Positions 19,630 through 43,266 of a stretch of 64,000 nt of DNA are shown here, piece after piece; positions within the stretch are counted from its first letter, which is position 1; the number at the start of each line of letters is the position of its first letter. Under the pieces are notes generated by a model that was given only the letters and a program-made list of their open reading frames with translations, was not told the origin of the DNA and searched no databases. The DNA is taken from positions 248,001 to 312,000 of the forward strand of contig NZ_JAJQXW010000003.1 of assembly GCF_021246445.1 (NCBI RefSeq). Reading direction: 5' to 3'. Both the position numbers and the translations under genes were made by a program. The DNA is from Rhabdothermincola salaria. Lineage in GTDB: Bacteria; Actinomycetota; Acidimicrobiia; Acidimicrobiales; Acidimicrobilacustridaceae.

Positions 19630-20424
19630 ATGACCACGATCCGCCGGAGGCCGCTCGTCGTCGCCTTCGCCCTCCTCGCCGCCATCGCCGTGGCCATCCC
19701 CACCTTCGGGGTGGGCCGGGCCTCGGCCGTCGACTCCCAGGTGTACATCGTGCACGGCATCCCCGGCGTCCCCGTCGACGTCTATGCCGGCGGCACGGCC
19801 GAGGCCAACCGGATCCTCACCGACTTCCAGCCGGGCGCCACCGCCGGTCCGCTCCCCATCCCCGAAGGCCCCCTCCCTGTCGTGGTCGTGGCCACCGGTG
19901 ACGACCCGACCGTGCCCGCCAACCAGGTGATCGACCAGACCCTCGACGTCCCGGGCGGCGCCGACCTGTCGGTCGTGGCCAACGTCCAGGGAGGCACCCC
20001 GAACCTCCAGGCCTTCGCCAACGACCTGAGCGAGGTGGCCGAGGGCTCGTCCCGCGTGACCGTGCGCCACACCGCCGACGCCCCGGCCGTGCAGGTCCTG
20101 GTGAACGGCGAGGTGGCCATCCCCGACCTGGCCCCCGGCGCCCAGGCCTCGGCCGTGCTGCCCGCCGGCACCTACGACATCGCCGTCCAGCTCACCGACG
20201 GCACGCCGCTGCCCGCCCTCTCCCCTGGCAGCGTCGAGATCCCGGCCGCCAAGAACGTCATCGTCTACGCGGTGGGATCGGCGAGCAACGTCGACTTCCC
20301 GCTCGGGCTGGTCCAGCAGGTGCTCGACGTCCCCGTCACCCCGGCTCCGGCTCCGGCCCCGGCGCCCGCCCCGGCTCCGAGCCATGCCGCTCCCGTGGCC
20401 GCTGTCCCCTCGGTGACCGGCTGA
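19630..20424 (+). CDS. Secreted DUF4397-domain protein
   Basis: AAGGAG RBS; signal peptide ending ASA; VYIVHGIPGVPVDVY and RVTVRHTADAPAVQV repeats; PA tether; ends PSVTG*. Confidence 0.85.
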   Translation: MTTIRRRPLVVAFALLAAIAVAIPTFGVGRASAVDSQVYIVHGIPGVPVDVYAGGTAEANRILTDFQPGATAGPLPIPEGPLPVVVVATGDDPTVPANQVIDQTLDVPGGADLSVVANVQGGTPNLQAFANDLSEVAEGSSRVTVRHTADAPAVQVLVNGEVAIPDLAPGAQASAVLPAGTYDIAVQLTDGTPLPALSPGSVEIPAAKNVIVYAVGSASNVDFPLGLVQQVLDVPVTPAPAPAPAPAPAPSHAAPVAAVPSVTG

Positions 20425-20468
20425 CCCCTTCGGCACCCGCCGTCGACGCCGGTCTCCGACCGGCACGC

Positions 20469-20499
20469 GCAGAGGCCCGGCCATCGGCCGGGCCTCTGC
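20469..20499. terminator. Bidirectional hairpin between convergent genes
   Basis: GCAGAGGCCCGGCC-atc-GGCCGGGCCTCTGC, 14-bp stem. Confidence 0.75.
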
Positions 20500-20518
20500 C
20501 GCGCGTCGACCGCCTCGG

Positions 20519-21664
20519 TCAGGACCGGATCAGGCGGGCCATGAGCTCGTGGCCCGGAACCGGCTCGAGCCCCTCGACCCCCGACTCGCTGTACGTGCCG
20601 CCTGCTCCGTCGACGGCGGAGTCGACGAGCAGGTACGGCACCGGCTCGGAGGTGTGGGTGCGGGTGGCCAACGGGGTGGCGTGGTCGGGCAGGAGCAGGA
20701 GCCGCCACGGTCCCATGGCGTCGAGCCCCGGGACGAGGTCGGCCAGGATGCGACGATCCCAGTTCTCCAGAGCCTTCACCTTCTCCTCGACGTCCCCGGC
20801 ATGGCCGGCCTCGTCGCTCGCCTCGACGTGGAGGATGAACAGGTCCGCCCCGCCGGCCAGAGCCTCGAGAGCGCAGTCGCGCTTGCCCTCGTAGTCGGTG
20901 TCGTACCAGCCCGTCGCCGTGGGCAGGTCGACCGCCCGCACGTCGGTGAGCACGCCGAGCCCTCGCACCAGGTCGACGGCGGTCACGAGGGCGGCGTCGA
21001 GACCGTAGGTCTCGGCGAAGGAGGGCATCTGGGGCTGGAACCCCTGGCCCCAGAGCCAGATCTGGTTGGCCCCGATGGGCGAGGGGCCCACGATGGCGCG
21101 AGAGGCGTCCATGAGCCGCTGCAGCGAGGGCGCGGCCGGCCCGGTGGGCCACACGGCGGCCTGGCCGGTGAGGTCGTGGGGAGGCGTGCACTCCGCCTCC
21201 ACCCAGTCCTTGGGGGCCACCACGATGTGGCGGTACTGCACGCCGGGGTGGAACGACACGCCGTCGCCCCCCAGCTCGGCCTGCAACGACTCGACGACCG
21301 CCGCGGCCTCCTCGGTGGAGGGATGGCCGCCGGCGAAGTCGACCATGGTCCCGTCGTCGCCGATGGTCACGAGGTTGCAGCGGTAGGCGACCTGGTCGGA
21401 CTCGAGCTTCAAGCCGAGGGCGGCCGCCTCGATGGGGGCGCGACCGGTGTGGTAGCGGGCCGGGTCGTATCCGAAGATCGACATGTTGCCGACGTCGGAG
21501 CCAGGAGGGAACCCGTCCGGGATCACCGCCGCCCGCCCCACCTCGCCGCGGGCGGCCAGCGCCCGCAGGTTGGGCAGGTCGGCCGCTTCGAGGGGCGTGC
21601 GCCCTCCGAGCTCGGCCACCGGCTCGTCGGCACAACCGTCGGGGACGCAGACCACGTACTTCAT
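20519..21664 (-). CDS. apgM: ApgM-family cofactor-independent phosphoglycerate mutase / proposed alternative homoserine kinase
   Basis: PDGCADEP, TPLEAA, PGSDVGNMSIFGYDP, HVEASDEAGH, PDHATP; follows hom-thrC. Confidence 0.85.
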   Translation of the reverse strand: MKYVVCVPDGCADEPVAELGGRTPLEAADLPNLRALAARGEVGRAAVIPDGFPPGSDVGNMSIFGYDPARYHTGRAPIEAAALGLKLESDQVAYRCNLVTIGDDGTMVDFAGGHPSTEEAAAVVESLQAELGGDGVSFHPGVQYRHIVVAPKDWVEAECTPPHDLTGQAAVWPTGPAAPSLQRLMDASRAIVGPSPIGANQIWLWGQGFQPQMPSFAETYGLDAALVTAVDLVRGLGVLTDVRAVDLPTATGWYDTDYEGKRDCALEALAGGADLFILHVEASDEAGHAGDVEEKVKALENWDRRILADLVPGLDAMGPWRLLLLPDHATPLATRTHTSEPVPYLLVDSAVDGAGGTYSESGVEGLEPVPGHELMARLIRS

Positions 21665-21733
21665 GACCTCGATGATGGCCCAACGCCGCTCCGGCCGGGG
21701 CATCGAACCCGGTGAGCCCCTACGGGGGCCGAC

Positions 21734-23137
21734 TCAGCCGAGCGTGTCGTCGATGACGTCGCGGACCACGGCGACGTCGTCATCGACCACGTCGTAGCGC
21801 TCGGGGCGATCGAAGAGGTCGGCCAGGTGCGTCGGCAACGGCGGGCGCACGCCCGTGGCCGCCTCGACGGCGTCGGGGAACTTGGCCGGGTGGGCGGTGG
21901 CCAGCACCACCATGGGCACGTCGGCGTCGCGGCGGGACTGTTCGGCCGCCGCCAGGCCGACCGCGGTGTGGGGATCGACGAACAGCCCGGTGCGCTCGTG
22001 GAGCGCGCGGATGGTCCTGGTGGTGCCCTCGTCGTCGACCCGGGTACCGGTCCAGTGCTCGCTCAGCAGGTCGAGTCGGTCTGGTTCGAGGGCGACGGTG
22101 CCCTCGGCCCGGAAGCGCGACATGAGCTCGGCCACCGCCGTGCCGTCGCGGCCGAACAGCTCGAACAGGAGCCGCTCGAGGTTGGACGAGACCTGGATGT
22201 CCATGCTCGGGCTGAGGGTGGGGTGGACCTCGCCGATGGTCATCGCCCCGGTGGTCAGGAACTGGGTGAGGATGTCGTTGCGGTTGGAGGCCACCACGAA
22301 CTGGCTGATGGGCACGCCCATGCGCTGGGCGGCGTACCCGGCGAACACGTTGCCGAAGTTCCCGGTGGGCACCGAGAACGCCACCGGCCGGCTGCCGCCC
22401 GCCCCGAGGCGAGCGGCAGTGGTGACGTAGTAGACGATCTGGGCCATCACCCGGGCCCAGTTGATGGAGTTCACCGCGGAGAGGTGGCGGCGATCACGGA
22501 ATTCGGTGTCGGCGAACAACGCCTTCACCAGGTCCTGGCAGTCGTCGAACGTGCCCCGCACCGCCAAGTTGTGCACGTTGTCGGCCAGCACCGTGGTCAT
22601 CTGGCGGCGCTGCACCTCCGAGACCCGCTCGTGGGGGTGCAGGACGAAGATGTCGATGGCGGCCCGGTCGCGACAGGCGTCGATGGCCGCCGAACCGGTG
22701 TCGCCCGATGTCGCCCCGACGATGGTGACGCGCTCGCCCCGCTGGCCCAGCACGTGGTCGAACAACCGGCCCACCAGCTGCAGGGCGACGTCCTTGAAGG
22801 CCAGCGTGGGGCCGTGGAAGAGCTCGGCCAGCCAGAGGCCGTCGCCCAGGTCGGTGAGGGGCACGACCTCGGCCGCGTCGAAGGTGGCGTAGGCCGCGGC
22901 GACGATGTCGGCGAACACGTCGGCGTCGATCGAGCCCTCGACGAAGGGCCACATCACCTCGACGGCAACGTCGGCGTACGACATGGAGGCGAACCGCTCG
23001 AGCGAGCCGTCGGGCAGCGTCGGCCAGGACGCGGGCACGTAGAGCCCGCCGTCGCGGGCCAGCCCGGCGAGGAGGACATCGGCGAAGTCGAGCTCGGGTG
23101 CCGCCCCTCTGGTGGAGACGTAGTGCAGAGGGCTCAC
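21734..23137 (-). CDS. thrC: Threonine synthase (long type)
   Basis: YVSTRG, ELFHGPTLAFKD, ATSGDTG, NSINWAR, VPTGNFGN, TAHPAKF. Confidence 0.96.
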   Translation of the reverse strand: MSPLHYVSTRGAAPELDFADVLLAGLARDGGLYVPASWPTLPDGSLERFASMSYADVAVEVMWPFVEGSIDADVFADIVAAAYATFDAAEVVPLTDLGDGLWLAELFHGPTLAFKDVALQLVGRLFDHVLGQRGERVTIVGATSGDTGSAAIDACRDRAAIDIFVLHPHERVSEVQRRQMTTVLADNVHNLAVRGTFDDCQDLVKALFADTEFRDRRHLSAVNSINWARVMAQIVYYVTTAARLGAGGSRPVAFSVPTGNFGNVFAGYAAQRMGVPISQFVVASNRNDILTQFLTTGAMTIGEVHPTLSPSMDIQVSSNLERLLFELFGRDGTAVAELMSRFRAEGTVALEPDRLDLLSEHWTGTRVDDEGTTRTIRALHERTGLFVDPHTAVGLAAAEQSRRDADVPMVVLATAHPAKFPDAVEAATGVRPPLPTHLADLFDRPERYDVVDDDVAVVRDVIDDTLG

Positions 23138-24471
23138 CGGAAGCCGCTCTCGTCACTGAGGACGCGGATCACGCTGCCCACCTTGAGCACGATGTCGAGG
23201 TCGGACAGCTCCTGCAGGGTCTGGGTGAGGTCGCGCTCGCGGGCCAGATGGGTGACGAACTCGAGTCGGGCCTGCCCTCGTACCGGCGGGGCGGTCGGGT
23301 CGGTCGTCGGGGCTTCCTGCTCCATGGAGGCGATGGAGACCCCGTGGTCGCTGAAGGCCCCGGCGACGGCGGCCAGCACGCCCGGCCGGTCGGCGGTCTC
23401 GATGCTCACGTAGAACGCCGAGGTGAGCTCGTCGACCGGCCGCAGGGGCATGTCGCTGAAGCTGCCGAGGCTGGCGTGGTTGTTGCGCTGGCGATTGGAC
23501 GCGGCGTCGATGAGGTCGCCGAGCAGGGCGCTGGCGGTGGGGCCGCCACCCGCCCCGCGCCCGTAGAACATGAGGTCGCCGACGGACTTGCCCTGCACGA
23601 AGATGGCGTTGAAGCTCTCGCGCACCGAGGCCAACGGGTGGGTGTCGGGCACGAAGGCCGGGTGCACCCGGGCGACGATGCGGTTGCCTTCGGGGCCGCT
23701 GAAGCGCTCGGCCACCGAGAGGAGCTTCACGACGAAGCCGTGCCGGCCGGCGAAGGCGATGTCATCGGCGGTGATGCCGCGGATGCCCTCGCAATCGACA
23801 TCGGAGGCCCGCACCCGGGCCCCGAAGGCCAGCGAGGCCACGATGGCGATCTTGGCCCCGGCGTCGAAGCCGTCGACGTCGGCGGTGGGATCGGCCTCGG
23901 CGAACCCCAGCTCCTGGGCCTCGGCGAGCGCCTCGGTGTAGTCGGCTCCCGCCTCGGTCATCCGAGTGAGGATGTAGTTGGTGGTGCCGTTCATGATGCC
24001 GAGCACCCGGAACACCGGCTCGCCCAGCAGCGACTCGCGCAACGGCCGTACGAAGGGGATGCCCCCGGCGACGGCGGCCTCGAACAACAGGTCGACCTTG
24101 GCGTGTTCGGCGGCGGCGAACACCTCCGGCCCGACCGCGGCCAACAGCTCCTTGTTGGCGGTGACGACCGGCTTGCCGGCGGCGATGGCCGACAGGACCA
24201 GGTCTTGGGCCGGCACCACACCGCCCATCACCTCGACGATCACGTCGATGTCGGGATCGGCCACGATGGCGGCGGGCTCACCGGTGAAGACCTCCGGGGG
24301 GAGGTCGACTTCGCGAGCCTTGCCCATGTCGCGCACCGCCACCCGGGCGATCTCCAGGCGCAGGCCGGTGCGGGACTCGATGAAGTCGCCCTGACGGGCC
24401 ACGAGGTTGATGAGCGATGAGCCGACGGTGCCGCATCCGAGCACCCCGACCTTCACGACGGGTCCGTTCAC
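23134..24471 (-). CDS. hom: Homoserine dehydrogenase with C-terminal ACT domain
   Basis: GVLGCGTVG, VVTANK, FEAAVAGGIP, NGTTNYIL, EADPTADVDG, DRPGVLA. Confidence 0.96.
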   Translation of the reverse strand: MNGPVVKVGVLGCGTVGSSLINLVARQGDFIESRTGLRLEIARVAVRDMGKAREVDLPPEVFTGEPAAIVADPDIDVIVEVMGGVVPAQDLVLSAIAAGKPVVTANKELLAAVGPEVFAAAEHAKVDLLFEAAVAGGIPFVRPLRESLLGEPVFRVLGIMNGTTNYILTRMTEAGADYTEALAEAQELGFAEADPTADVDGFDAGAKIAIVASLAFGARVRASDVDCEGIRGITADDIAFAGRHGFVVKLLSVAERFSGPEGNRIVARVHPAFVPDTHPLASVRESFNAIFVQGKSVGDLMFYGRGAGGGPTASALLGDLIDAASNRQRNNHASLGSFSDMPLRPVDELTSAFYVSIETADRPGVLAAVAGAFSDHGVSIASMEQEAPTTDPTAPPVRGQARLEFVTHLARERDLTQTLQELSDLDIVLKVGSVIRVLSDESGFR

Positions 24472-24883: not shown

Positions 24884-24884
24884 G

Positions 24885-25523
24885 GTGCCACGCGGGGCAG
24901 GCGCGCCGGACTCCGCCCGCCAGGCGGGTCGTGAGGCGCTGTTCGGCGCCTTCGCCGAGCTCCTCTACGAGCAGGGCTACGACGCCATCAGCCTCGCCGA
25001 CGTGGCGGCCCGGGCCGGGGTGTCGCGGACATCGGTCTACAACTACTTCTCGGACAAGGACGCCTTGGTGGTGGCCTATGCCGACCACGAGTCGACCGCC
25101 TACGCGGGGGCCCTGCGAGCCGAGCTCGAAGAGATCGACAACCCCGTCGACCGGCTGCGCGCGCTCATCGCGTCGCAACTGCGCTACTTCGCCAGCCACC
25201 ACCTCCCGCCGGGCCGTGACCTGCGCGTGGCCATCTCTCCGGCGGCCTACCAGCGGGTCGCGCAGCACGCGGTCGTGCTCGAGGGCATCCTGCGCCAGGT
25301 CCTGCGCGAGGCCGTCGCCGAGGGGTACCTGCCCGACGACGACGTCGAGGGCGCCATGCCGCTGGTGACCGCGTGCATCGACCGCGGCGCAGCCGAGGAC
25401 CGTGACCCCGATGCCCTCACCGAGAGCATCGAGGTCACGACCACGTTCGTACTGCGGGCCCTGGGGGTCCGGCTGGGCCCTAGCGGTCGTCCCCGCCGGG
25501 TCGCACCTCGGCCCGGCGCCTGA
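24885..25523 (+). CDS. TetR/AcrR-family regulator
   Basis: GYDAISLADVAARAGVSRTSVYNYFSDKDAL HTH. Confidence 0.92.
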   Translation: MPRGAGAPDSARQAGREALFGAFAELLYEQGYDAISLADVAARAGVSRTSVYNYFSDKDALVVAYADHESTAYAGALRAELEEIDNPVDRLRALIASQLRYFASHHLPPGRDLRVAISPAAYQRVAQHAVVLEGILRQVLREAVAEGYLPDDDVEGAMPLVTACIDRGAAEDRDPDALTESIEVTTTFVLRALGVRLGPSGRPRRVAPRPGA

Positions 25524-27039
25524 TCGCAGCCGTACCGGCCACGCCGGCACCCCCGAGCAGCAGGGCGGCGGCGGTCCACCACAGGGCGGACGAGTCCGAG
25601 CCGGTGTAGGGCAGGGTGCCGGTGGCGACACCGACGGGAGTCGCTCCCCCGCCGACGCCGGTGACCCCGCCGGTGGTGCCATCCGTCGTGGGCCGGCCTT
25701 CGGCGACGTCGGGCACCGAGCTCAGCTCGAGCACGACGGTGAGCGGATCCAGGGCGTCACCGGCGGCGTAGAAGTCCGAGAACGCCGGTACCCCGGCCTC
25801 GGTGAGGCTGGCGGCGATGGCGGGCCAGGTCACGGTGGCGGCCACCCGACCGGGCGTGCCCGCGACGCTGAGGGTGGCCAGCACGACGTCGTCGTGGACC
25901 TCGGCGGCCTGGAGCGAGGTGAACGACGAGGGCACCGTGGCACCGAGCGCGCCGGGGGCCAGCGGGGTGCTCTCGACGTCGGCCACGAGCACACCGGTGA
26001 CACCGTCGACGTCGACCCGGATGTCGGAGAGCTGCAGGTCGAGCTGTCCGCCGTGACCGGTGAAGCGCACGGCTCCGCCGAAGCCGGCGTCGACGCGCTG
26101 GCCGTCGGGGGCGACCTCACCCACGCCCGGCTGGGCCGGGAAGCGGAAGGTGCCGTCGGGGTTGGTGCTGGCGCCGCCGGTCGTCGCGATCGAGCCCTGG
26201 GCGATGCCCCCGGTGACGTAGCTGTGGAACGAGGCCTTGACGCCCCAGTCGAGGTGGCCACCCACGATCTGCAGCGGCCCCGTGGGTGCGGCGGTGGTGG
26301 GAGGCATGGTCGGGGGAGGCGTGGTCGGGGTCGGTGCGACGGTGGTGGACGTGGTCGGCGGGACGGTGGTCGGCGGGACGGTGGTGGACGTGGTCGGCGG
26401 GACGGTGGTCGACGTGGTCGACGTGGTCGGCGGGACGGTGGTCGACGTGGGCGGTGGGACGGTGGTCGACGTGGTCGGCGTCGGCTCCGACGCGAACGAC
26501 ATGGGGACGTACAGCTCCTGGGCGGGGTTGGTCGCGCCGCTGGCCGGGTACGTGTACACGCCGTAGTTGCCGGCCACGGCGTCGGCCATCTCGACCGGGA
26601 GCTGGGCGGTGAACGTGCCGTCGGGAGCCAGCTCCACGTAGCTCCCGGTCGGCGACAGGACCGGTGCCAGCGCGGCCGGGGCGGCCCACCTCTGCGCGAT
26701 CACCTCACGGCTCGACGAGGCGGCCCCTTCCGATGGCCGCCAGTCATCGGCGAACTTGCCGAACGCCACGTACACGCCGGCCGGCTGACCGTTCGCCGGC
26801 GGCCGAGAACCGATGTTGGCCGCCGGGTCGAACCCGGCGCCCGTCACCGTCACCGTCTCCCCGTCACGGTCCAGATCCGTCGTCTTCGACACCGACAGCG
26901 CGGGCTCCCACACCGGCGTGTCGTCGGCGCTCACCGGGCTGGCCACGATCGCCGCGGCGGCGAGCACGACGAACGCCAACAGTGCTCGCCGCGTCGTTCT
27001 GGTGGGGGACCTCCGCTGGGAGGTGTCGTCGGTGTCCAT
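25480..27039 (-). CDS. HtaA-domain heme-binding surface protein with LPxTG sortase anchor
   Basis: Signal peptide; DWGVKASFHSYV, VRFTGHGGQLD and FSDFYAAGDALDP (HtaA Tyr/His/Tyr motifs); LPYTG + TM + RRR. Confidence 0.85.
   Translation of the reverse strand: MDTDDTSQRRSPTRTTRRALLAFVVLAAAAIVASPVSADDTPVWEPALSVSKTTDLDRDGETVTVTGAGFDPAANIGSRPPANGQPAGVYVAFGKFADDWRPSEGAASSSREVIAQRWAAPAALAPVLSPTGSYVELAPDGTFTAQLPVEMADAVAGNYGVYTYPASGATNPAQELYVPMSFASEPTPTTSTTVPPPTSTTVPPTTSTTSTTVPPTTSTTVPPTTVPPTTSTTVAPTPTTPPPTMPPTTAAPTGPLQIVGGHLDWGVKASFHSYVTGGIAQGSIATTGGASTNPDGTFRFPAQPGVGEVAPDGQRVDAGFGGAVRFTGHGGQLDLQLSDIRVDVDGVTGVLVADVESTPLAPGALGATVPSSFTSLQAAEVHDDVVLATLSVAGTPGRVAATVTWPAIAASLTEAGVPAFSDFYAAGDALDPLTVVLELSSVPDVAEGRPTTDGTTGGVTGVGGGATPVGVATGTLPYTGSDSSALWWTAAALLLGGAGVAGTAAIRRRAEVRPGGDDR
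26335..26485 (-). repeat. Tandem repeat encoding a (TTSTTVPP)n Thr/Pro linker
   Basis: Repeated ggtggt(g/c)gacgtggtcggcgggac units (24-bp, plus truncated 15- and 9-bp variants). Confidence 0.85.
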
Positions 27040-27076
27040 GTCGCTCCTCGAGGGTCGGACAACCTTCACAAGGTTA

Positions 27077-27090
27077 TTAGGTATGCCTAC
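27077..27090. promoter_or_regulatory. DtxR/IdeR-family iron box upstream of the htaA-like gene
   Basis: TTAGG-TATG-CCTAC in a locally AT-rich promoter region. Confidence 0.65.
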
Positions 27091-27164
27091 TACGCTGCGT
27101 CAGGGTACGCAGTCACGGGCGACGAGCGCAAGACGGGTCCACCGTCGTGGCGGGCCCGATCGCC

Positions 27165-28025
27165 TCAGCGGAGAGCGCGGCGAGGAAGCACGAGCAGAGC
27201 GCCGGTCTCGGGGTGGCGGAGGACCTCGATGTCGTGGTCGTACACCGCCCCCAGGCGCGTGGGCGTGAGCACCTCGGCGGGCGGGCCATCGGCCACCACG
27301 TGTCCACCGGCGACCACCACCACCCGGTCGGCGTGGGCCGCCGCCAGCCCCAGGTCGTGCAACACCACCACCACCCCGTCGCCGGCGTCGGCGCGCTGCC
27401 GTGCCGTCTCCAGCACCAGCTCCTGGTGGTGCAGGTCCAGCGCGGCGGTGGGTTCGTCGAGCAGGACCAACTGGGCCTGCTGGGCCAGCACCCGGGCCAG
27501 GGCCACCCGGGCCCGCTCGCCACCCGAGAGGGTGGGGAAGGTGCGCGCCGCCAGATGGGACGTGTCGGTCGTGGCCAAGGCCGCCCGGACCACGGCGTCG
27601 TCGCGGTCGTCGTCCCCCAGGCCGGCCCACGGGGCCCGACCCATCCGGACCACGTCCACGACCCGGAACGGGAAGGCGACCGCCACCTGCTGGAGCAACA
27701 CCGCCCGACGCCGGGCCAGCTCACCCGGCGGCATCGCCGAGATGGCGCGCCCGTCGAGCTCGACGACCCCACCGACCACGGCCACGTCGCCGGCCAGCGC
27801 CCCGAGGAGCGTGGACTTGCCGGCGCCGTTGGGGCCCACCAGCGCCACCAGCTCTCCGGCCCGGACGTCGAGCGATGCGTCGTGCAGGATCGTGGTGCCC
27901 CCGAGGTCGACGCGCAGGGATCGGGCCACCACCAGGGACCCGCCCCGGCCCACCCGCTCGGGCACCAGGTCCCTGTCTCGGCGACCGCGCCCTCCGCCGG
28001 CCAGCCGGGCCAGGAGGGCCGTCAC
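27165..28025 (-). CDS. hmuV: Heme ABC transporter ATPase
   Basis: GPNGAGKST, LARRRAVLLQ, LSGGERARVALARVLAQ, LLDEPTAALD. Confidence 0.88.
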   Translation of the reverse strand: MTALLARLAGGGRGRRDRDLVPERVGRGGSLVVARSLRVDLGGTTILHDASLDVRAGELVALVGPNGAGKSTLLGALAGDVAVVGGVVELDGRAISAMPPGELARRRAVLLQQVAVAFPFRVVDVVRMGRAPWAGLGDDDRDDAVVRAALATTDTSHLAARTFPTLSGGERARVALARVLAQQAQLVLLDEPTAALDLHHQELVLETARQRADAGDGVVVVLHDLGLAAAHADRVVVVAGGHVVADGPPAEVLTPTRLGAVYDHDIEVLRHPETGALLVLPRRALR

Positions 28026-29149
28026 GCCCAGCCGCCCTGGCGGGCCCGGGTGCGACGCAGCAGCCAGAAGAAGAAGGGGCTGCCCACCAGCGCGGTCAGC
28101 ACGCCGAGCGGCACCTCAGCCGGGGCGGCCACCGTGCGCGCCGCCAGGTCGGCGCCGACGACGATGACGGCGCCACCCAGGGCCGACGCCACCAGCAACA
28201 ACCGGTGGGAGGGCCCCGCGACCATGCGCACGAGGTGGGGGACGACCAGGCCGACGAAGAGGACGATCCCCGACACCGCCACCGCGGCGGCGGTGAGCAC
28301 GGCCACGATCACCAGCATCTGCACACGGAGGCGTTCGACGTCGACGCCGAGGTGACGGGCCGAGCGCTCTCCCAGAGAGAGCAGGTCGAGCTGGTGGGCC
28401 TTGGTGACGGCCAGCACCACCCCCAACAGCGCCAACGGGGCCACCGCCGCCACCTTGGGCCAGGTGGCCTGGGCCACGCTGCCGAGCTGCCAGAAGGTGA
28501 TGCTGCGCAGCTGGGCGTCGGTGGAGAAGTAGGTGAGCAGCCCCATGACCGCACCGGTGAGCGCGTTCACCGCGATGCCGGTGAGGATCAGGGTGACCAC
28601 CTCGGTGCGCCCGTTGGCCCGAGAGGCCAGGTAGACCACCACGACGGTGAGCAGACCGCCGACGAAGGCGGCCAGGCTGAGGCTCCAGTTCCCCAACACC
28701 GTGAAGCCCACCACGATGGAGGCCACCGCGCCCATGGCCGCTCCGGAGGAGACCCCGACGATGCCGGGCTCGGCGAGGGGGTTGGCGAAGGTGCCCTGCA
28801 TGGCCGCGCCGGCACAGCCCAGGGCGGCGCCCACGAGCACGGCGAGGGCGACACGCGGGAAGCGGACCTCCCAGAGCACCGACTCGGCGACGCCCGTGGG
28901 GGCGGTGCCCACCTGGAGTCCCACGCGGTCGAGCACCGAGGAGAGCACCTCGAGCGGCGACACCGGGAACGACCCGATGGCCGCAGCGGCCACCGACATG
29001 GCGAGGAGAGCCAGCGACAGGAGGCCGAGGAGGACGGGGCCGTGCAGGAGTGGCCGAGTCGCGGCGACGACGTCCTCGAGGTCGTCGCCGTCGGAGCCGC
29101 CCGGCAGCTCGGCGGAGGTCCCGGGCGGCGCCTCGGCCAGGTCGGTCAC
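28022..29149 (-). CDS. hmuU: FecCD-family heme ABC permease
   Basis: RFPRV, NPLAEPGIVGVSSGA, FVGLVVPH, EVPLGVLTALVGSPFF. Confidence 0.9.
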   Translation of the reverse strand: MTDLAEAPPGTSAELPGGSDGDDLEDVVAATRPLLHGPVLLGLLSLALLAMSVAAAAIGSFPVSPLEVLSSVLDRVGLQVGTAPTGVAESVLWEVRFPRVALAVLVGAALGCAGAAMQGTFANPLAEPGIVGVSSGAAMGAVASIVVGFTVLGNWSLSLAAFVGGLLTVVVVYLASRANGRTEVVTLILTGIAVNALTGAVMGLLTYFSTDAQLRSITFWQLGSVAQATWPKVAAVAPLALLGVVLAVTKAHQLDLLSLGERSARHLGVDVERLRVQMLVIVAVLTAAAVAVSGIVLFVGLVVPHLVRMVAGPSHRLLLVASALGGAVIVVGADLAARTVAAPAEVPLGVLTALVGSPFFFWLLRRTRARQGGWA

Positions 29150-30144
29150 GATGCCGATCCGTCGGTGTGGATCGCCTCGATGAGCTCGGCGAGGGCGAGC
29201 GGGGTGCGCGAGCCGAAGCTGTAGAGGATGCCGTCCTCGACGGTCACCACCCGCCGGCTCGCGGCGGCGGGTGTCTGGGCGATCCCGGGCATGGCCAGGA
29301 GCTCGTCGATGCCGCCGACCGACTCGAGGCCGCTGCCGGTGAGCAGGATCACGTCCGGCGCGGCCTCGACCATGGCCTCGCTGGTGATCGGGGTGAACGG
29401 TCGGTCGAGGCCGATGGCGCGGCCGGCGTCCTCTCCGCCGGCTGCGGCGATCATCGAATCGGCACCCGACCCCTCTCCGCCGAGCAGGTACACGCCTGCC
29501 TGGCCGCGCAGGTACAAGAAGGCGACCAGGGGCTCGGAGCCTTCCGGGATGGTGTCGCGGGCGTCGGCGATCTCCCGCTCGGTCCGGTCGACGAGGTCTT
29601 CCCCGGCGGCGGGCACGCCCAGCGCCTCGGCGATGGTGCGGATGCGCGGCGTGATGTCGTCGATGCTCATCGGCATCTCGAGCACCACCACTGCGATGCC
29701 GGCGGCGCGGATCTGGTCGAGGGCTTCGGGTGGACCGGTGTCGGTCTGGGCCAGCACCACCGTCGGCTCGAGCGACAGCACCGATTCGGTGCTCACGTCG
29801 TGGGCCCGGGTGACGATCGGGAGGTCCTCCGTGCCGGGGAAGGTGGCCGACACGTCTCGCCCCACGACGCGGTCGCCGAGGCCGAGGGCGAACACGATCT
29901 CGGAGAGGTTGCCCCACAACGGCAGGATGCGAGAGGCGTCGGTGACGGTGACGATGGTGCCATCGGCGGAACGGACCTCGGCGGGAAGGACGGGCGTGGG
30001 CGCGGTGGCGACCGGCGAGAGCTCCACCCCGTCGCCTTCCGGGGTCCCGATCGAGGTGGCCGCACCGCACGCCGAGGCTCCGAGCGTGACCGCGAGGAGC
30101 AGCGCGGCCACGGCGAAGAGGCGACGGCACCGGTGGCGGCGCAT
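29146..30144 (-). CDS. hmuT: Heme ABC substrate-binding lipoprotein
   Basis: Lipobox ASAC; VVGRD; RAHDVSTE and FLYLRG (His/Tyr ligand positions as in corynebacterial HmuT). Confidence 0.85.
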   Translation of the reverse strand: MRRHRCRRLFAVAALLLAVTLGASACGAATSIGTPEGDGVELSPVATAPTPVLPAEVRSADGTIVTVTDASRILPLWGNLSEIVFALGLGDRVVGRDVSATFPGTEDLPIVTRAHDVSTESVLSLEPTVVLAQTDTGPPEALDQIRAAGIAVVVLEMPMSIDDITPRIRTIAEALGVPAAGEDLVDRTEREIADARDTIPEGSEPLVAFLYLRGQAGVYLLGGEGSGADSMIAAAGGEDAGRAIGLDRPFTPITSEAMVEAAPDVILLTGSGLESVGGIDELLAMPGIAQTPAAASRRVVTVEDGILYSFGSRTPLALAELIEAIHTDGSAS

Positions 30145-30145
30145 C

Positions 30146-31015
30146 TCAGGACGCCTCTGCCGACGAGTCCCGGCGGCGCAGGACCAACGCGGCGCCGCCC
30201 CCCGCGAGGAGCACCAGGACCACGACGATGCCGACCCACGCACCGGCCCCTGGTCCGCCGCTGCCCTCACCGTCGGCGGAAGCCAGCTCGGCCTCCTCGT
30301 CGAAGCGCTCCTCGACCCCGGTGGTGGTGGTGGTGGCCTCGGTGGTCGTGGTGGTCTCCGGCGGCACCGTGGTGGTCGTCGTCTCGGGGACCGTCTCCGG
30401 CACGGTCTCGGGCGGAACGGCAGCCGGGGGTTCCGTCGCCGGAGGGGCGACCGGGGCGGCGAAGCTCACCGGCACGATGCCGTCCTGGCCGCGGTCGCTG
30501 GCCCGGGTGTGGTCGTTGCGGGTGGAGATGGCGCACTGCACCACCCGGCAGTCGACGTCGGGGTTGAGCATGGCGGACGGGCGCAGCGTGACCGAGAACG
30601 ATCCGCCCGGTCCGTAGGGGACGGTCAGCCCCTGCGCATAGGGCGGCGGGTTCGACGAGATCCAGTGCGAGAGACCGCCGGAGCCCTCCACGGCCACGCC
30701 GCCGCCACACGGCGACGGCGGCGACCCGGGCGGGGGGACGACGCAGAAGGCGACGTAGATCCCCTTGTTCACGTCGAAGCACGAGCCCGTGACGGTGACC
30801 GTCTCGCCGTTCGGGTCGAGGCCCTGGGACTTCGACACCGTCAGCACGGGGCCGCAGCCCTGGGCCGACGCGGGCTCGGCGGAGGGTCCGACGGCGAAGG
30901 CCCCGATCGCCACCAGGACCACGGCGACGCCCAGCAGCCCCCGCCTGGCGAGAGCGGATCGGCGGGCTGCGACGCCTTCGCGTCTCGTGGTCGACTTCTG
31001 CGGTGCGGTGCGCAT
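30146..31015 (-). CDS. Membrane-anchored Ig-like (neocarzinostatin-like) surface protein
   Basis: Signal peptide; LTVSKSQGLDPNGETVTVTG...GIYVAFC...DCRVVQC...RNDHTR; Thr/Glu linker; C-terminal TM + RRR. Confidence 0.7.
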   Translation of the reverse strand: MRTAPQKSTTRREGVAARRSALARRGLLGVAVVLVAIGAFAVGPSAEPASAQGCGPVLTVSKSQGLDPNGETVTVTGSCFDVNKGIYVAFCVVPPPGSPPSPCGGGVAVEGSGGLSHWISSNPPPYAQGLTVPYGPGGSFSVTLRPSAMLNPDVDCRVVQCAISTRNDHTRASDRGQDGIVPVSFAAPVAPPATEPPAAVPPETVPETVPETTTTTVPPETTTTTEATTTTTGVEERFDEEAELASADGEGSGGPGAGAWVGIVVVLVLLAGGGAALVLRRRDSSAEAS

Positions 31016-31061
31016 CGCCGGTCCTCCTCCTGCCCGTGCGACACGGACGTGACAGCTCGTA

Positions 31062-31075
31062 ATAGGTCTGCCTAA
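31062..31075. promoter_or_regulatory. DtxR/IdeR-family iron box in the divergent heme promoter
   Basis: ATAGG-TCTG-CCTAA, the same TTAGG-N4-CCTAA core as at 27077. Confidence 0.65.
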
Positions 31076-31192
31076 CATCCGATGCCAACACAGCTAACCA
31101 GCGATGGGTGAGCGGTGGCAAGCAGGCCCCCGGGTCGGATGTCACCGCCACGGCCTGGACGACCACCGCCGGGCGGCGGGGAGGAGCACACC

Positions 31193-31849
31193 GTGTCCAC
31201 GACCGAGCAGGATCGAACCGACGGCGCGACGGCAGCGTTCTCCGAGGCGGTGAAGGCCGCTTCCTGGGAGGTCCACGAGCACGCCGAGCACTCCCGGTAC
31301 ATGCAGGACCTCATGGCCGGGCGGCTCGACCGGGCGGCCTACGCCCGGCTCGTCGCCCAGCAGTACTTCGCCTACCGGGACCTGGAGGCGGCCTCGCAGC
31401 GCATGGCCGACGATCCCATCGGGTCCCGCTTCGTCTTCCCGGAGCTGTACCGCCTCCCGGCTCTGCACGCCGACCTCGACGCCCTCTTGGGCCGCGGATG
31501 GCGATCCAGCATCGAGCCCACGCCTGCCACGGCCGCCTACTGCGGCCGCCTCCGCGACGTGGCCGCCACCGACCCCGGCGCCTATGTGGCCCACCACTAC
31601 GTGCGCTACATGGGCGACCTCTCCGGTGGTCAGGTCATCCGGCGGGTCGTCGAGCGCACCTACGACATCGCCGACCACGCCGGCACCAGCTTCTACGTCT
31701 TCGACCGCGTCGACCCCAAGGCGTTCAAGCAGCAGTACCGCCTCCGGCTCGACGCCACGCCCTGGACCGAGCCGGAGAAGGCCCGCATCATCGACGAGGT
31801 GCTGCTCGCCTACCGCCTCAACACCGACGTCCTGGCCGAGCTCGCCTGA
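31193..31849 (+). CDS. hmuO: Biliverdin-producing heme oxygenase (HmuO-like)
   Basis: GGAGGAG RBS; HEHAEHS proximal His; AHHYVRYMGDLSGGQ. Confidence 0.92.
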   Translation: MSTTEQDRTDGATAAFSEAVKAASWEVHEHAEHSRYMQDLMAGRLDRAAYARLVAQQYFAYRDLEAASQRMADDPIGSRFVFPELYRLPALHADLDALLGRGWRSSIEPTPATAAYCGRLRDVAATDPGAYVAHHYVRYMGDLSGGQVIRRVVERTYDIADHAGTSFYVFDRVDPKAFKQQYRLRLDATPWTEPEKARIIDEVLLAYRLNTDVLAELA

Positions 31850-38696: not shown

Positions 38697-40268
38697 TCAG
38701 CCCTCGCTGGCCTCGGGCAGGTCGCCGGGGTAGACGAGGCGCACGACCACGGCGGCGACCAAGGGCACCGCGGCACCGACGAGCAGGGCGAGGGTCATCC
38801 CGTTGGTGAACGCCACCCCGGCGGTGTTGCGGATGGCCTCGCCGTAGGTGCCTCCGACGCGCGCCGCGGCGCCGACCGCCCCGGAGAGCGACTCGCGCAC
38901 GGCATCGAGCACCCCGCCGGGGAGCCGATCGGCGACGTCACCCGCGCGTGTCACCGCCTCGTCGATGCTCGAACGGTACGACGCCGCCAGGATCGCACCG
39001 AGCACCGCGACGCCGAGCGATCCCCCGATCTCGCCGATGGCGTCGTTCACCGCCGCCGCCGAGCCCGACTTCTCGCGAGGCACCGACCCGAGGATCCCGT
39101 TGGTGGCCTGGGGAAGGGCCAGGCCCAGCCCGCCGCCCATGAGCGCGAGCACGACACCGAGCACGACATAGGGGGTCGCCGTGGTGATGACCGAGGCCAC
39201 CCCCATGCCGACGGCGACCGCCGCCAACCCGACCACGACCACGGTGCGGGCGCCGACCCTCGCCGACCAGCGGGGGCTCAGCAGCGACGCCAGGAGCAGC
39301 CCGCCGGCGAGGGGCAGCACCCCGAGGCCCGACTCCAACGGGCTGTAGGACCACACCAGCTGGAGGAACTGGGGCACGAAGAACATCGTCCCGAACAGGG
39401 CGAAGTAGATGACCGCCACCGATCCCACCGACACGCTGAACACCCGCTGGGCGAACCAGCGGACCTGCAGCATCGGGGCCGAGGTGCGCAGCTCCCAGAC
39501 GACGAAGAGGGCGAGCAGGACCGACCCTCCCACCGCGGCGCCGACCGTGGCCGGGGCCACCCCCTGGTCGGGTACCTCCACCACGGAGTAGACGATGGCG
39601 ACCAACCCGGTCGTCGACAGCACCGCCCCCAACGGGTCGAGGCGGGGCCGGGACGGGTCGCGGGTCTCGGGCACGACCACCAGCACCGCGACCAGCAGCG
39701 GGACCACCAGGAGCGGGTTGACGAGGAAGATGGCGTGCCAGTCGAAGTGCTCCACCAGCAGACCTCCGAGGATCGGACCGAGGGCGACGGCCGCGCCCGC
39801 CACCGCCGCCCAGACGCCGATGGCCCGTCCCCGCTCGGCCGGGTCGGGGAACACCTGGGTGAGCACCGACAAGGTCGAGGGCATGATGAACGCGCCGCCG
39901 ACGCCCATGGCCGCCCGGCACAGGGTGAGCACCAGGGCGTCACCGGCCAGGGTGGCCGCCAGGGAGAACACGCCGAACACGACGAGACCCACGAGGAGCG
40001 CGAGCCGGCGCCCGTAGCGGTCGCCGAGGCTGCCGGCCAGCAACAACGAGCCGGCGAAGAGCAACGAGTAGCCGTCGACGATCCACTGCAGCTCCTCCTG
40101 GGTGGCGCCCAGGTCCTCCTGGAGCCGCGGCAGGGCCACGTTGACGATGGTGTTGTCGAGCGAGATCAGCGCCAGGCACCCCGACAGCACCGCCAGCACC
40201 AGCCAGCGCCGGCGGCGGGCTCTGTCCAGGTCGGGGGCGTCGGGCTGCTCCGCGGTGTCGCCAGGCAC
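38697..40268 (-). CDS. DHA2-family MFS efflux transporter
   Basis: LDNTIVNVALP, LQWIVDGY, GSLGDRYGRR, GPILGG; 14-TM pattern. Confidence 0.92.
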   Translation of the reverse strand: MPGDTAEQPDAPDLDRARRRRWLVLAVLSGCLALISLDNTIVNVALPRLQEDLGATQEELQWIVDGYSLLFAGSLLLAGSLGDRYGRRLALLVGLVVFGVFSLAATLAGDALVLTLCRAAMGVGGAFIMPSTLSVLTQVFPDPAERGRAIGVWAAVAGAAVALGPILGGLLVEHFDWHAIFLVNPLLVVPLLVAVLVVVPETRDPSRPRLDPLGAVLSTTGLVAIVYSVVEVPDQGVAPATVGAAVGGSVLLALFVVWELRTSAPMLQVRWFAQRVFSVSVGSVAVIYFALFGTMFFVPQFLQLVWSYSPLESGLGVLPLAGGLLLASLLSPRWSARVGARTVVVVGLAAVAVGMGVASVITTATPYVVLGVVLALMGGGLGLALPQATNGILGSVPREKSGSAAAVNDAIGEIGGSLGVAVLGAILAASYRSSIDEAVTRAGDVADRLPGGVLDAVRESLSGAVGAAARVGGTYGEAIRNTAGVAFTNGMTLALLVGAAVPLVAAVVVRLVYPGDLPEASEG

Positions 40269-40389
40269 GAGCCAGGACGTTAGACCCCGGTCGAGACGAT
40301 GGGTTCGACCGCCGCGTGGGCCATCGGGGTCGAGGCGACACGACCGGCTGCGCCGGCGGTGGAGCCGGCGATCCCGATCCGGCTCCGGA

Positions 40390-41886
40390 TCAGCGGCAGT
40401 CCAGACCGGCGGGGGCGGCGTCGGGCACCACGCCGATGATCTCGTCGGTGGCCTCGGCGGCCACGGTCGTGGTGGTCTCGTCCCCGCTCGCCTCGAGCGT
40501 CGTGGTCGTGGTCGCCGGGCGGGCCTCGTCGAGCACGGTGGTGAAGTCCGTGCCGGTGACCAGCACGATCGGAGAGTCCTCGCCCTCGAGTGAGGCGTCC
40601 TCCTCGAGGTCGGCCCCCGACGCCAGCTGGCGGGCCACCTGGTCGGCGTGGCGCTCCATGCCGGGGGCGTAGCGCACGACCGTGCGGGTGTTGGTCTCGT
40701 CGGTGTCGGCTCCGATGGCGGCCTGGTAGCCGAGGCCCTCGAGCTCGCCGGAGACCTCGGTGGCCTGCATCTCGGCCCCGCTGCCGTTGCGCACGATGAG
40801 GCTCACCGAACCAGGCGACACCGCGTCGGGAGGCAGACCACGGAAGACGTTGAGCACCGGCTCGGCCTCGACCTCGACGAGCTCGGCGATCCACGCCCCA
40901 CCGCTGGTGATGCGGTCGGTCACCGGGAGGTTGTGGGTGACGATCTGGTCGCCGGAGAACCCCTGGAAGGCTCGGGCCAGATCGACGATCTCGCCCAGGC
41001 CGAGGCCGTCGTCGATGGTCAGGTTGTCGGCGGTCGAGGCCACCACGTCGTTGACGGCCTTCACGTCGAGGGAACCGAACGAGGCGTTGGCCCGGTCGAT
41101 CACCCGGCGGATGAAGAACTGCTGGCGGCTGATGCGCCCGAAGTCGCCGGTGGGGTCCTCGACCCAGCGACCCTGGGAGTCCTGGTGCTCGAGGTGGCGG
41201 GAGCGGGCGAAGGCCAGGCCCTGGTCGCCGTCGAGCGACTGGCACCCCAGCTCGTACTGGTAGAAGCCCGTGTGCTCGTCTCGCATGGGGCCTTCGAAGT
41301 ACATCGGCACCCCGCCGACGGCGTCGACGACGCCCTTGAAGCTGGAGAAGTCGATCTCCACGTAGTGGTTGATGTCGATGCCGAACTCGGTCTGGATGGT
41401 GTCGACCAGGGCCTGGGCCCCGTTGTTGTAGGCCGTGTTGATCCGTTGCTCCTCGCCGCCGGGCTGGATCGGGATCCACAGGTCTCGCGGGAACGAGATG
41501 AGGTCGACGCTGCTGTTGGCAGCATCGACCCGGGCGATCATGATCGTGTCCGAGCGCTGACCGCTGTGGCCGGCGCCGGGCTCGTTCAGGAAGGCCGAGG
41601 CGTTGGGGTCGTCGCCGGTCACCACCTCGCGGTTGTCGGACCCGACGATCAGGAAGTTCTGGGGTCCGGCGCCGATGGTCTCGGCCAACGCCAGGTCCTT
41701 GCGCTCGACCTGGTTCCACCGGAACCAGCCGTAGCCGAACACGCTGGCCCCGGCCAGCGCCACGAGGGCGACGACCGTGCCCAGCACCACCAGGACCTTG
41801 CGCCGGGCACTCCACCGGGCCCGGCGAGGCAGCGGCTCGCGGGCGTGTCGGAAGGCGGGTTTGCCGGACGGGGGGACTGCAGGCAT
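40390..41886 (-). CDS. LCP-family (LytR-CpsA-Psr) ligase with LytR C-terminal domain
   Basis: NFLIVGSD, RSDTIM, SFPRDL, RINTAY, DFGRISRQQ, VRNGSG. Confidence 0.92.
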   Translation of the reverse strand: MPAVPPSGKPAFRHAREPLPRRARWSARRKVLVVLGTVVALVALAGASVFGYGWFRWNQVERKDLALAETIGAGPQNFLIVGSDNREVVTGDDPNASAFLNEPGAGHSGQRSDTIMIARVDAANSSVDLISFPRDLWIPIQPGGEEQRINTAYNNGAQALVDTIQTEFGIDINHYVEIDFSSFKGVVDAVGGVPMYFEGPMRDEHTGFYQYELGCQSLDGDQGLAFARSRHLEHQDSQGRWVEDPTGDFGRISRQQFFIRRVIDRANASFGSLDVKAVNDVVASTADNLTIDDGLGLGEIVDLARAFQGFSGDQIVTHNLPVTDRITSGGAWIAELVEVEAEPVLNVFRGLPPDAVSPGSVSLIVRNGSGAEMQATEVSGELEGLGYQAAIGADTDETNTRTVVRYAPGMERHADQVARQLASGADLEEDASLEGEDSPIVLVTGTDFTTVLDEARPATTTTTLEASGDETTTTVAAEATDEIIGVVPDAAPAGLDCR

Positions 41887-41982
41887 GACCCGAGGAGCGT
41901 ACCGGCCGGGCTGCGGTGCCCGGCGTCACCTGTGTGTGCGATCGAGCACACCGCAGGTGACGCCGGGAGCCGGTCCGGACGC

Positions 41983-42018
41983 GGCGAGGCCCCCTGCCGA
42001 TCGGCAGGGGGCCTCGCC
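41983..42018. terminator. Perfect 36-bp palindrome downstream of the second DUF4397 gene
   Basis: GGCGAGGCCCCCTGCCGA|TCGGCAGGGGGCCTCGCC. Confidence 0.75.
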
Positions 42019-42063
42019 TCGTCGCTGCTGGTCGACGGGGCGTCCGTCAGACCCTCAGCGGCC

Positions 42064-43266
42064 TCACCCGGTGAAGCGGGGCGTGACGCTGGTGGGCTGG
42101 GCCGGAGCCGGCGTGGGTGCCGGCGTCGGCGTCGGCGTCGGCGTGGGCGCCGGCGTGTCGAAGCAGTTGGCGACGACCCATTCGGTGAGCACCTCGGTGG
42201 CGGCGTCGATCTCGGGGTCCGGCGTGTCGTCGTTCAGGCCGTCGATGATGTCCTGCAGCGCGGCCTCGGGAAGCATCTCGAGGTCGCCGCCGACCAACGC
42301 CAGGCCGGCCGCCAGGTCACGAAGGCCCGCGGTGAGGATCTCCCACTGGGGTTGCACCTCGAGCGGCACGTCGATGTCGCCGAGGAGGATCACGGCGTTC
42401 AACGCGTCCACGACGTCCATGACCTCGTCGGGCGTCGGGTAGGTGCCGGGCTCGCCGACCACGACGCCGGCGAAGAGGGCGTCGAGCAGGATGGTGGCCT
42501 CGCTCAGCCCGAGCACGTCGTTGCAGAAGGCCGGGTCCGGCATGTTGTCGGGACGTTCCTGGCCGACGACGAGCACCTGGACGCAGTTGGCGCCGCACGT
42601 CTCGACCGCCGTGGCGGTCAGGGCGAAGCTGGTACCGGCGACGAGGTTGACGTCGTTGGTCTCGGGATCGCACCCGAGGCCCAGATCGAGGCTCAGGCCG
42701 TACACGCCCTCGGGCACCTCGGCGATGCCGGCGTTGGGGAAGGTGATCTCCTCCAGGCCTGCGACGGCCTCGCCGTCGAGGCAGACCGAGACGGGGCCCA
42801 CGCCGGCCGGGATGGCGTGGTTGAACTGGAACCGGGCCATGCCCAGACCCGTGGGCGTCGTGTCGACGACGAACTGGGCGAGCGTCCCGACGGGCGGGGG
42901 CGGGCCGGCGACGTTCGGCTCGACGACCAGGGTGTAGGTCGTCCCACCGGCCACCGAGATGACCCCGCTCAGGACGGTCTGGGCGGCACCGCCCGGGGCG
43001 CAGGTGTCGTCGGTCGAGCCGGCGAAGCAGACGACCACGTCGTGGTCGCCGGCGGACAGGCCGACATCGAAGCTCTCGCCCGAGGCGAGGTCCGACGCGG
43101 CCTCCAGGCCATTGACCCAGACGTCGACATCGACCTCGGGGCCGCCAGGGATGCCATGGATGACTCGCAGGTCACCCGTCGTCGACGTTGCCGCCTGCAC
43201 TGCGCCGGTGGCCGGCACGAGCGCCATCAGCAACCCGAGACACGCCGCTATGGCGATCTTTCTCAC
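42064..43266 (-). CDS. Secreted DUF4397-domain protein with extra Cys-containing helical domain
   Basis: GAGGAG RBS before GTG 43266; signal peptide; LRVIHGIPGGPEVDVDVWVNG and RFQFNHAIP repeats; PT tether; ends PRFTG*. Confidence 0.78.
   Translation of the reverse strand: MRKIAIAACLGLLMALVPATGAVQAATSTTGDLRVIHGIPGGPEVDVDVWVNGLEAASDLASGESFDVGLSAGDHDVVVCFAGSTDDTCAPGGAAQTVLSGVISVAGGTTYTLVVEPNVAGPPPPVGTLAQFVVDTTPTGLGMARFQFNHAIPAGVGPVSVCLDGEAVAGLEEITFPNAGIAEVPEGVYGLSLDLGLGCDPETNDVNLVAGTSFALTATAVETCGANCVQVLVVGQERPDNMPDPAFCNDVLGLSEATILLDALFAGVVVGEPGTYPTPDEVMDVVDALNAVILLGDIDVPLEVQPQWEILTAGLRDLAAGLALVGGDLEMLPEAALQDIIDGLNDDTPDPEIDAATEVLTEWVVANCFDTPAPTPTPTPTPAPTPAPAQPTSVTPRFTG

Follow-up and report, generated by a model that had tools for sequence, protein, structure and literature searches.

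Short C-terminal signals on exported proteins are known from the sortase (LPXTG, classes A-F) systems, and the accessible part of 10.1101/2023.06.07.544157 describes four tripartite systems: PEP-CTERM/exosortase, PGF-CTERM/archaeosortase, GlyGly-CTERM/rhombosortase and MYXO-CTERM/myxosortase. The present analysis concerns a C-terminal tag, P-x-[F/V/L]-T-G followed directly by a stop codon, that was found on two exported proteins encoded in a 64,000-nucleotide stretch of the genome of Rhabdothermincola salaria (the window; contig NZ_JAJQXW010000003.1, positions 248,001 to 312,000) and on further proteins encoded elsewhere in this source genome. It also concerns a candidate partner enzyme, an L,D-transpeptidase (LDT) with an SH3b and a YkuD domain. 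Tag and enzyme suggest a previously undescribed mode of protein attachment to the cell wall; a literature search, from whose reach most subscription journals and preprint supplements were excluded, yielded no published description of such a system.

As in sortase systems, the tag is a short C-terminal Thr-Gly motif behind a low-complexity tether on many unrelated exported proteins and is interchangeable with sortase signals in homologues; its proposed processing likewise involves a Cys transpeptidase that would cut between Thr and Gly and transfer the protein to a peptidoglycan amine. Unlike a sortase signal, it has neither a membrane helix nor a basic tail, Gly is its last residue, and Pro occurs at position -5 (25/25) instead of -4, so that the pattern L-[P/A]-x-T-G is not matched; moreover, the enzyme linked to it has a YkuD fold and not a sortase fold. 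With the tripartite systems, as far as they are covered in the accessible part of 10.1101/2023.06.07.544157, the tag shares its C-terminal position, high copy number, near-invariant residues, the presence of signal peptides on unrelated proteins and a co-occurring enzyme. The tag has neither the helix nor the Arg cluster that those signals share, and its candidate enzyme is an LDT, soluble or lipid-anchored, and not an intramembrane protease.

Attachment of proteins to peptidoglycan by LDTs is described in passages of PMC12274547 for Lpp and OutB (C-terminal Lys; LdtA-C), beta-barrel proteins (N-terminal Ala or Gly) and LimB (internal Lys). Lpp-type anchoring, as presented there, resembles the proposed system in two respects: secreted proteins are joined to peptidoglycan by an enzyme of the YkuD family, and substrates are recognizable by a short box at the C-terminus. 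It differs in that the stem peptide acts as acyl donor and the protein provides the amine, whereas the tail is the proposed donor here. The tag system also differs from it in having dozens of unrelated clients in monoderm actinobacteria. LdtF/DpaA is another YkuD enzyme whose target, according to part of 10.1101/2021.02.24.432682, is a terminal Gly bearing a free carboxyl group; it differs in being a hydrolase of muropeptides and Lpp links, and is only a distant fold match of the SH3b-YkuD enzyme.

C-terminal tag of exported proteins

In the initial annotation of the window, two distantly similar signal-peptide DUF4397 proteins on opposite strands had been noted for their similar tails. Both tails were present at the ends of the corresponding open reading frames (19630-20424 and 43287-42064), both proteins scored above the Pfam cut-off for DUF4397, and they were 27% identical across 248 columns. 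The reading frame of protein 2 runs from 43287 (- strand); the earlier start at 43266 is an in-frame GTG. By heuristic rules, the N-termini of both proteins were signal-peptide-like and neither had a C-terminal helix. A Pfam search with the second half of protein 2 (approximately residues 250-380; 42150-42540, - strand) gave no match. The HtaA protein of the window (25480-26979, - strand) ends, as had been annotated, in a canonical sortase signal. The features were as follows:

19630..20424, + strand: tagged exported protein 1 (264 residues), with signal peptide, DUF4397 region, Pro/Ala tether and tag PSVTG-stop
19630..19728, + strand: predicted Sec signal peptide of protein 1 (heuristic rule; cleavage after ...RASA placed by eye)
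19735..20097, + strand: best DUF4397 (PF14344) stretch of protein 1, residues 36-156 (Pfam match)
20386..20424, + strand: C-terminal tag of protein 1, AAPVAAVPSVTG-stop (translation)
42064..43287, - strand: tagged exported protein 2 (407 residues), with signal peptide, DUF4397, a second region, PT-repeat tether and PRFTG-stop
42808..43173, - strand: best DUF4397 stretch of protein 2, residues 39-160 (Pfam match)
42064..42102, - strand: C-terminal tag of protein 2, AQPTSVTPRFTG-stop (translation), the commonest form in the source genome
25600..25614, - strand: comparator outside the tag system, LPYTG sortase motif of HtaA, followed by a hydrophobic stretch and RRR

The source genome (G000; 3.9 Mb, approximately 72% GC) was represented by 3396 genes from our own codon-model caller and by 31,936 stop-to-stop segments of at least 60 residues. 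P.FTG terminated 23 of these segments and 22 of the called genes, the latter against an expectation of 0.033 (11 internal occurrences in 1.12 million residues), and FTG was the commonest C-terminal tripeptide. Among 28,540 shadow-frame segments there was a single match, which corresponded to a real gene missed by the caller. Together with one PRLTG gene and the PSVTG gene of the window, the 23 P.FTG genes brought the number of genes ending in P-x-[F/V/L]-T-G-stop to 25, with two P.LTG segments that resembled non-coding frames (C1:1404670, C3:432702) left out. Pro at -5, Thr at -2 and Gly at -1 were invariant in all 25, Phe occupied -3 in 23, and position -4 was R, A, T or S. Further upstream, Ala at -12 (19/25) and Pro at -10 (12/25) were frequent. 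The longer pattern A-x-P-x4-P, originally derived from the two window proteins, fitted 11 of the 25 genes and does not hold as a general rule, whereas the core of Pro, Thr and Gly does.

Synonymous codons varied among the tagged genes, which ended in TGA (22) or TAG (3), and the DNA downstream of their stops was unrelated. These variations in silent codons and downstream DNA indicated that the tag is a protein-level signal. In-frame read-through past the stops of the 25 genes, inspected by eye, revealed no hydrophobic stretch. A repeated DNA sequence and a helix reached by read-through were both rejected as explanations.

Export was assessed with a simple signal-peptide rule, applied to the 24 tagged genes that had been called (one was uncalled). 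All 24 passed, compared with 685 of the 3372 other genes, a result that bore out the suggested enrichment among exported proteins. None of the 24 encoded a transmembrane helix after the signal peptide, and the maximum 19-residue hydropathy in the last 45 residues was at most 1.48 in each. The last 30 residues contained no Lys in 23 of the 24, so that the C-terminal Lys form of Lpp-type anchoring did not apply. DUF4397 occurred in 3 of the 25 tagged proteins, which placed the tag on mostly unrelated domains beyond DUF4397 paralogues. The 23 tagged proteins encoded outside the window had Pfam matches above cut-off (11), a weak match (1) or none (11); the 11 comprised NHL, peptidase M28, three glycine-rich domains, DUF4397, fn3, trypsin, two Ig/cadherin-like domains and an alpha/beta hydrolase. 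No NCBIfam model, CTERM models included, matched the tail in the 25 proteins, in line with the initial view that it was not covered by an existing model. The tag showed the general features of C-terminal sorting signals, namely many copies per genome, a C-terminal position, and occurrence on signal-peptide proteins that are otherwise unrelated, and we regard it as almost certainly a real signal.

In homologues, the tag was found to occupy a slot that is otherwise held by sortase-type signals or wall-binding domains. Of 68 homologues of window protein 1, 51 ended in a tag (10 in Px[FY]TG and 41 in variants, mostly PxVTG or PxMTG), which identified the Val form in the window as a conserved family variant and not as decay. 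Seven others, all lower in the list, carried a helix and basic tail and one a PF00395 domain, which we take to be SLH; the remaining nine appeared truncated, frameshifted or unclassified. For the second tagged protein, 87 matches (query included) comprised 68 with a tag or variant, eight with a helix-type signal and one with PF04122, presumably cell-wall-binding repeat 2.

DNA patterns for the tag, which at genus, family and order level also allowed TGG at the stop position, matched 10-25 times per genome in four congeneric genomes, 0-34 times within the family and 0-22 times within the order, compared with 0-3 for the reversed pattern. A wider scan of one genome per species gave at least 125 stretches (L066, which overlaps L065, was dropped). 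Among the matches listed, in-frame, tether-bearing tags were, by record title, mostly from Acidimicrobiia and Thermoleophilia, with scattered cases in Actinomycetia, and most matches outside Actinomycetota looked off-frame or ordinary. The tag, which had been suggested to belong to a lineage-specific display system, is therefore less restricted than that term implied. At seven, mostly Thermoleophilia, loci (L024, L030, L032, L043, L047, L065, L073), the tagged proteins shared a basic domain that directly preceded the tag, mostly ended in R-C and replaced the Thr/Pro tether. In one genome (G005:C5:3305-3360, - strand), two tag-like matches lay 38 nucleotides apart, possibly reflecting a duplicated or replaced tail.

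Candidate partner enzyme

The source genome encodes one sortase and three YkuD proteins. One of the latter was, as judged by eye, of the peptidoglycan-binding type. The other two, both outside the window, were candidate partner enzymes:

G000:C1:1596995-1597840: candidate partner enzyme, lipoprotein with an extra N-terminal domain and YkuD
G000:C1:1684363-1685169: candidate partner enzyme, lipoprotein with an extra N-terminal domain and YkuD

No processing enzyme adjoined tagged genes in the source genome among 124 listed neighbours and 15 further Pfam-scanned genes (mostly neighbours of tagged genes, together with the sortase gene and the one that follows it). A genome of the same family (G010) did have a pair of enzyme and tagged gene. 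Among 78 distinct tag loci with flanking DNA, 14 carried an SH3b-YkuD enzyme, as did one short locus, and in 13 of the 14 the enzyme gene came directly after the tagged gene, in the same orientation and within approximately 250 nucleotides. These loci spanned three actinobacterial classes, and the enzyme was the most recurrent neighbour family of the tag. A single sortase query gave no matches at tag loci L022-L145, while the third YkuD protein was matched at one locus, by a short N-terminal piece only. Among cultured organisms, tagged gene and enzyme adjoined each other in Patulibacter defluvii, Actinoallomurus spadix, A. iriomotensis and Haloechinothrix aidingensis. At L062 (5459-6017), the tag-adjacent enzyme gene matched in two frames and appeared frameshifted or mis-assembled, as it did at L043. 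One more gene family was common to the tag-enzyme loci L036, L062, L063 and L095.

The reverse comparison started from 90 enzyme loci, taken from 150 listed matches in a search of 401 genomes of the phylum (the top 30 and 60 picked to cover genomes; one identical to a seed). An upstream same-strand reading frame ending in [FYL][TA]G was found at 22 of these loci (12 with strict PxFTG; 353 segments), compared with 10 of 3260 other segments, at least three of which were further tagged genes. In 20 additional enzyme loci from the class, a tagged gene adjoined in nine; four loci had been preselected on a known match, leaving 5 of 16 unselected ones. A control subfamily, represented by the third, peptidoglycan-binding type YkuD protein, showed the strict tag at 0 of 30 loci, compared with 10 of the top 30 enzyme loci within the same flank, although the minimum reading frame was 60 residues for the control and 30 for the enzyme loci and one of the ten depends on the shorter limit. 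The absence of a strict tag from its 30 loci led to rejection of this third protein as partner.

The candidate enzyme consists of a lipoprotein or signal peptide, an SH3b domain and a YkuD domain. PF03734 (YkuD) was matched by 14/14 members, and the catalytic His169 and Cys185 were invariant in the alignment; approximately 12 extra residues precede the catalytic His relative to B. subtilis YkuD. In an AlphaFold2 model (108-row alignment; predicted local distance difference test score 95.3), the C-terminal domain matched YkuD/Ldt structures, with the LdtF/DpaA-type structure 8ikr as a distant match (Z 9.1, root-mean-square deviation 2.1, 98 aligned residues). The N-terminal domain was SH3b-like (SH3_3 in 8/14 members, with weak E-values) and matched 4krt, a phage endolysin domain (Z 8.2, root-mean-square deviation 2.4, 67 aligned residues). 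No NCBIfam family scored above cut-off for the five enzyme proteins searched.

Profiling of the motif against its candidate partner was based on 221 genomes of the class that were at least 90% complete, with at least three tag matches defining a tag-rich genome. The enzyme was present in 91 of the 221. All 24 tag-rich genomes, from five families, encoded it, and none of the 130 enzyme-negative genomes reached three tag matches; seven of these had one or two, which equals the control level. The relation was one-directional: the tag implied the enzyme (24/24), and the enzyme without the tag was common (24 of 91 enzyme-positive genomes being tag-rich). In the phylum sample, the enzyme occurred in eight of nine genomes with at least three tag matches. 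The phylum and control tallies include genomes marked as unpublished (G126, G354, G435, G087, G041), which are not used in any locus-level claim. Tag-rich or not, most of the genomes (204 of 221) encoded a sortase; three tag-rich drafts (G557, G580, G582; 92-94% complete) gave no sortase match. Being near-universal, the sortase does not track the tag. The dedicated transpeptidase that had been guessed at initially thus found support from neighbourhood and co-occurrence, in the form of an SH3b-YkuD LDT and not of a sortase, and this subfamily is very probably the partner of the tag in some way.

On the enzyme tree, tag-adjacent rows were clustered, requiring 10 changes (six of them forced by starred branches) compared with a mean of 28.5 after shuffling; 12 of the 34 tag rows were seeds chosen for adjacency, and the bootstrap had not settled. 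With 10 changes needed, a single tag-specific enzyme clade was unsupported. Genes upstream of the enzyme at L197, L200, L201, L211, L212, L214, L217, L149 and L152 ended in FGLTG, LGLTG, AGLTG, SQLTG, GGFTG, PTLAG or PDFAG, grouped by enzyme subclade. Co-variation of motif and enzyme across subclades is possible. SH3b-YkuD genes without a detectable tag in families f23, f35 and f43 may encode ordinary cross-linkers or partners of a different C-terminal motif.

Proposed mechanism and alternative explanations

The signal is real and widespread, its candidate enzyme is well supported, and a chemistry can be proposed for the two. The signal, P-x-[F/Y/V/M/L]-[T/A]-G-COOH preceded by a tether rich in Thr, Pro and Ala, would serve cell-wall anchoring without a membrane helix. 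After Sec export and removal of the signal peptide, the tail would be recognized by the dedicated exported SH3b-YkuD LDT, whose catalytic Cys would attack the bond between Thr and Gly. The terminal Gly, which is achiral and has a free carboxyl group, would stand in for the D-Ala4 leaving group of meso-diaminopimelic acid (mDAP)-D-Ala and be released, and the protein-Thr thioester would be passed to a free amine of a peptidoglycan stem (mDAP or Lys). In the source genome, either of the two SH3b-YkuD lipoproteins may perform this reaction. All 36 aligned tails had Gly as their last residue, immediately before the stop. To our knowledge, and in keeping with established chemistry, Gly is the sole ribosomal residue able to pass for a D-residue. 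In the accessible part of PMC13235563, LDTs are acylated by the residue before the terminal D-Ala of the donor, and D-Ala leaves; part of 10.1101/2021.02.24.432682 reports that LDTs swap terminal D-Ala for Gly and that the YkuD protein LdtF cuts off terminal Gly. From this donor chemistry, the mimicry of a D-residue by Gly and the invariance of the terminal Gly, we infer cleavage between Thr and Gly and transfer to a peptidoglycan amine. The complete mechanism, in which the LDT links the tagged protein via Thr to peptidoglycan and releases Gly, is considered reasonably probable. On balance we also favor its wider form, in which the LDT subfamily would be a sortase analogue that uses a free C-terminal Thr-Gly as acyl donor and anchors up to approximately 30 unrelated proteins per genome helix-free; enzyme and signal would travel as two-gene cassettes, and PxFTG, xGLTG and GGFTG variants would differ between enzyme subclades.

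Several observations weigh against covalent anchoring by this enzyme. In the LDT attachments covered by passages of PMC12274547, transfer runs in the opposite direction, with the protein as amine acceptor, and nothing visible keeps a substrate without a membrane helix near the enzyme. The enzyme is more widely distributed than the tag, as 67 of the 91 enzyme-positive genomes of the class had fewer than three tag matches. In family f23, 27 of 32 genomes were enzyme-positive and tags were not above control; a relaxed tag was not in excess in five f23 genomes (75 matches, compared with 112 for the reversed-pattern control). Tagged neighbours were found at 0 of 15 enzyme loci of f43 and at none in the main, nine-row f35 enzyme clade, and no tagged gene lay beside either SH3b-YkuD gene of the source genome. 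The ninth genome of the phylum sample (G225, 7.9 Mb) was enzyme-negative with three raw pattern matches (count only). The Fisher p of 7e-11 for co-occurrence of tag and enzyme overstates the association and is only indicative because related genomes are not independent, and the DNA patterns used for the tag miss AT-rich codons and V/M/L variants.

The same partner might also act non-covalently: a lipoprotein LDT would bind the Pro-containing tail through its SH3b domain or active-site groove, and catalysis would be confined to ordinary 3-3 cross-links. The SH3b-like N-terminal domain suits such binding, the adjacency and profile data fit it equally well, and the tag-less enzyme clades suggest a housekeeping role. 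It is nevertheless unlikely, as it leaves the invariant terminal Gly and immediate stop unexplained; moreover, with one or two receptor genes, 25 clients would presumably have to be bound stoichiometrically, and several Thermoleophilia enzymes lacked an obvious lipobox (by eye). If the LDT does cleave or ligate the tail, the acceptor could be a protein N-terminus or a lipid or glycopolymer amine instead of peptidoglycan, or Gly could be trimmed for maturation or release. YkuD proteins do include hydrolases such as LdtF (10.1101/2021.02.24.432682, in part) and, according to part of PMC10864386, enzymes with altered donor use. The substitution of the tag for wall anchors in homologues makes these variants quite unlikely. 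For a protein N-terminus in particular, the predicted mature N-termini of tagged proteins (by eye) were a mixture of Gln, Gly, Ala and Val, and the start with Gln in approximately 10 of 25 argued against a shared Gly/Ala acceptor end.

A signal unrelated to anchoring, such as one for an export chaperone, a C-terminal protease or ribosome pausing, with the link to the LDT reflecting a shared envelope function, would agree with the many enzyme-positive genomes without tags and with the tagged genes of the source genome, which never adjoin the enzyme. Tight same-strand pairing of tag and enzyme in distant lineages, the lack of such pairing in the control LDT subfamily and the interchange of the tag with anchors render it very unlikely. 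Handling of a truncated or divergent sortase signal by the local sortase was judged highly improbable. This sortase is class-E-like (NF033747, 140 bits compared with a cut-off of 160), is the only one encoded in the source genome, and its local substrates (10 genes and HtaA) carry L[PA][YF]TG, which shares aromatic-Thr-Gly with the tag. However, the tag lacks a helix, basic tail and hydrophobic read-through (by eye), its Pro is one position out of register, and a Gly with a free carboxyl group is not accepted by sortases according to the accessible part of PMC9126251. A sortase was rejected as partner of the tag on neighbourhood, distribution and substrate chemistry. The tag may have derived from an L[PA][YF]TG signal by loss of the helix, or have converged on it. 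Shared DUF4397 ancestry, a repeated DNA element or chance, for which the distant paralogy of the two window proteins might speak, was refuted by the unrelated domains of the tagged proteins (22 of 25 without DUF4397), the variation in codons and flanks, and the excess over expectation, and has a negligible probability.

If covalent anchoring by the SH3b-YkuD LDT holds true, proteins would have one more covalent route to display on peptidoglycan, one in which the substrate role of LDTs is reversed, and the tag would be the first sorting signal without a helix among the systems found described. Many exported proteins from Acidimicrobiia and Thermoleophilia that lack annotation would gain a location, and a common, unnamed LDT subfamily a function. 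The enzyme would also be a peptide ligase that takes a free C-terminal Gly, unlike sortases as described in part of PMC9126251.

Other genes of the window

An LCP-family gene (LytR_cpsA_psr and LytR_C; 40390-41886, - strand) lies 177 nucleotides after the gene for tagged protein 2 on the same strand; the LCP family was absent from the 22 most recurrent neighbour clusters of tag loci. The interval 25480-31849, which also encodes another exported protein with a helix anchor but no sortase motif, comprises HtaA with its LPYTG, ABC transporter genes and a periplasmic binding protein, and looks like a haem uptake cluster.

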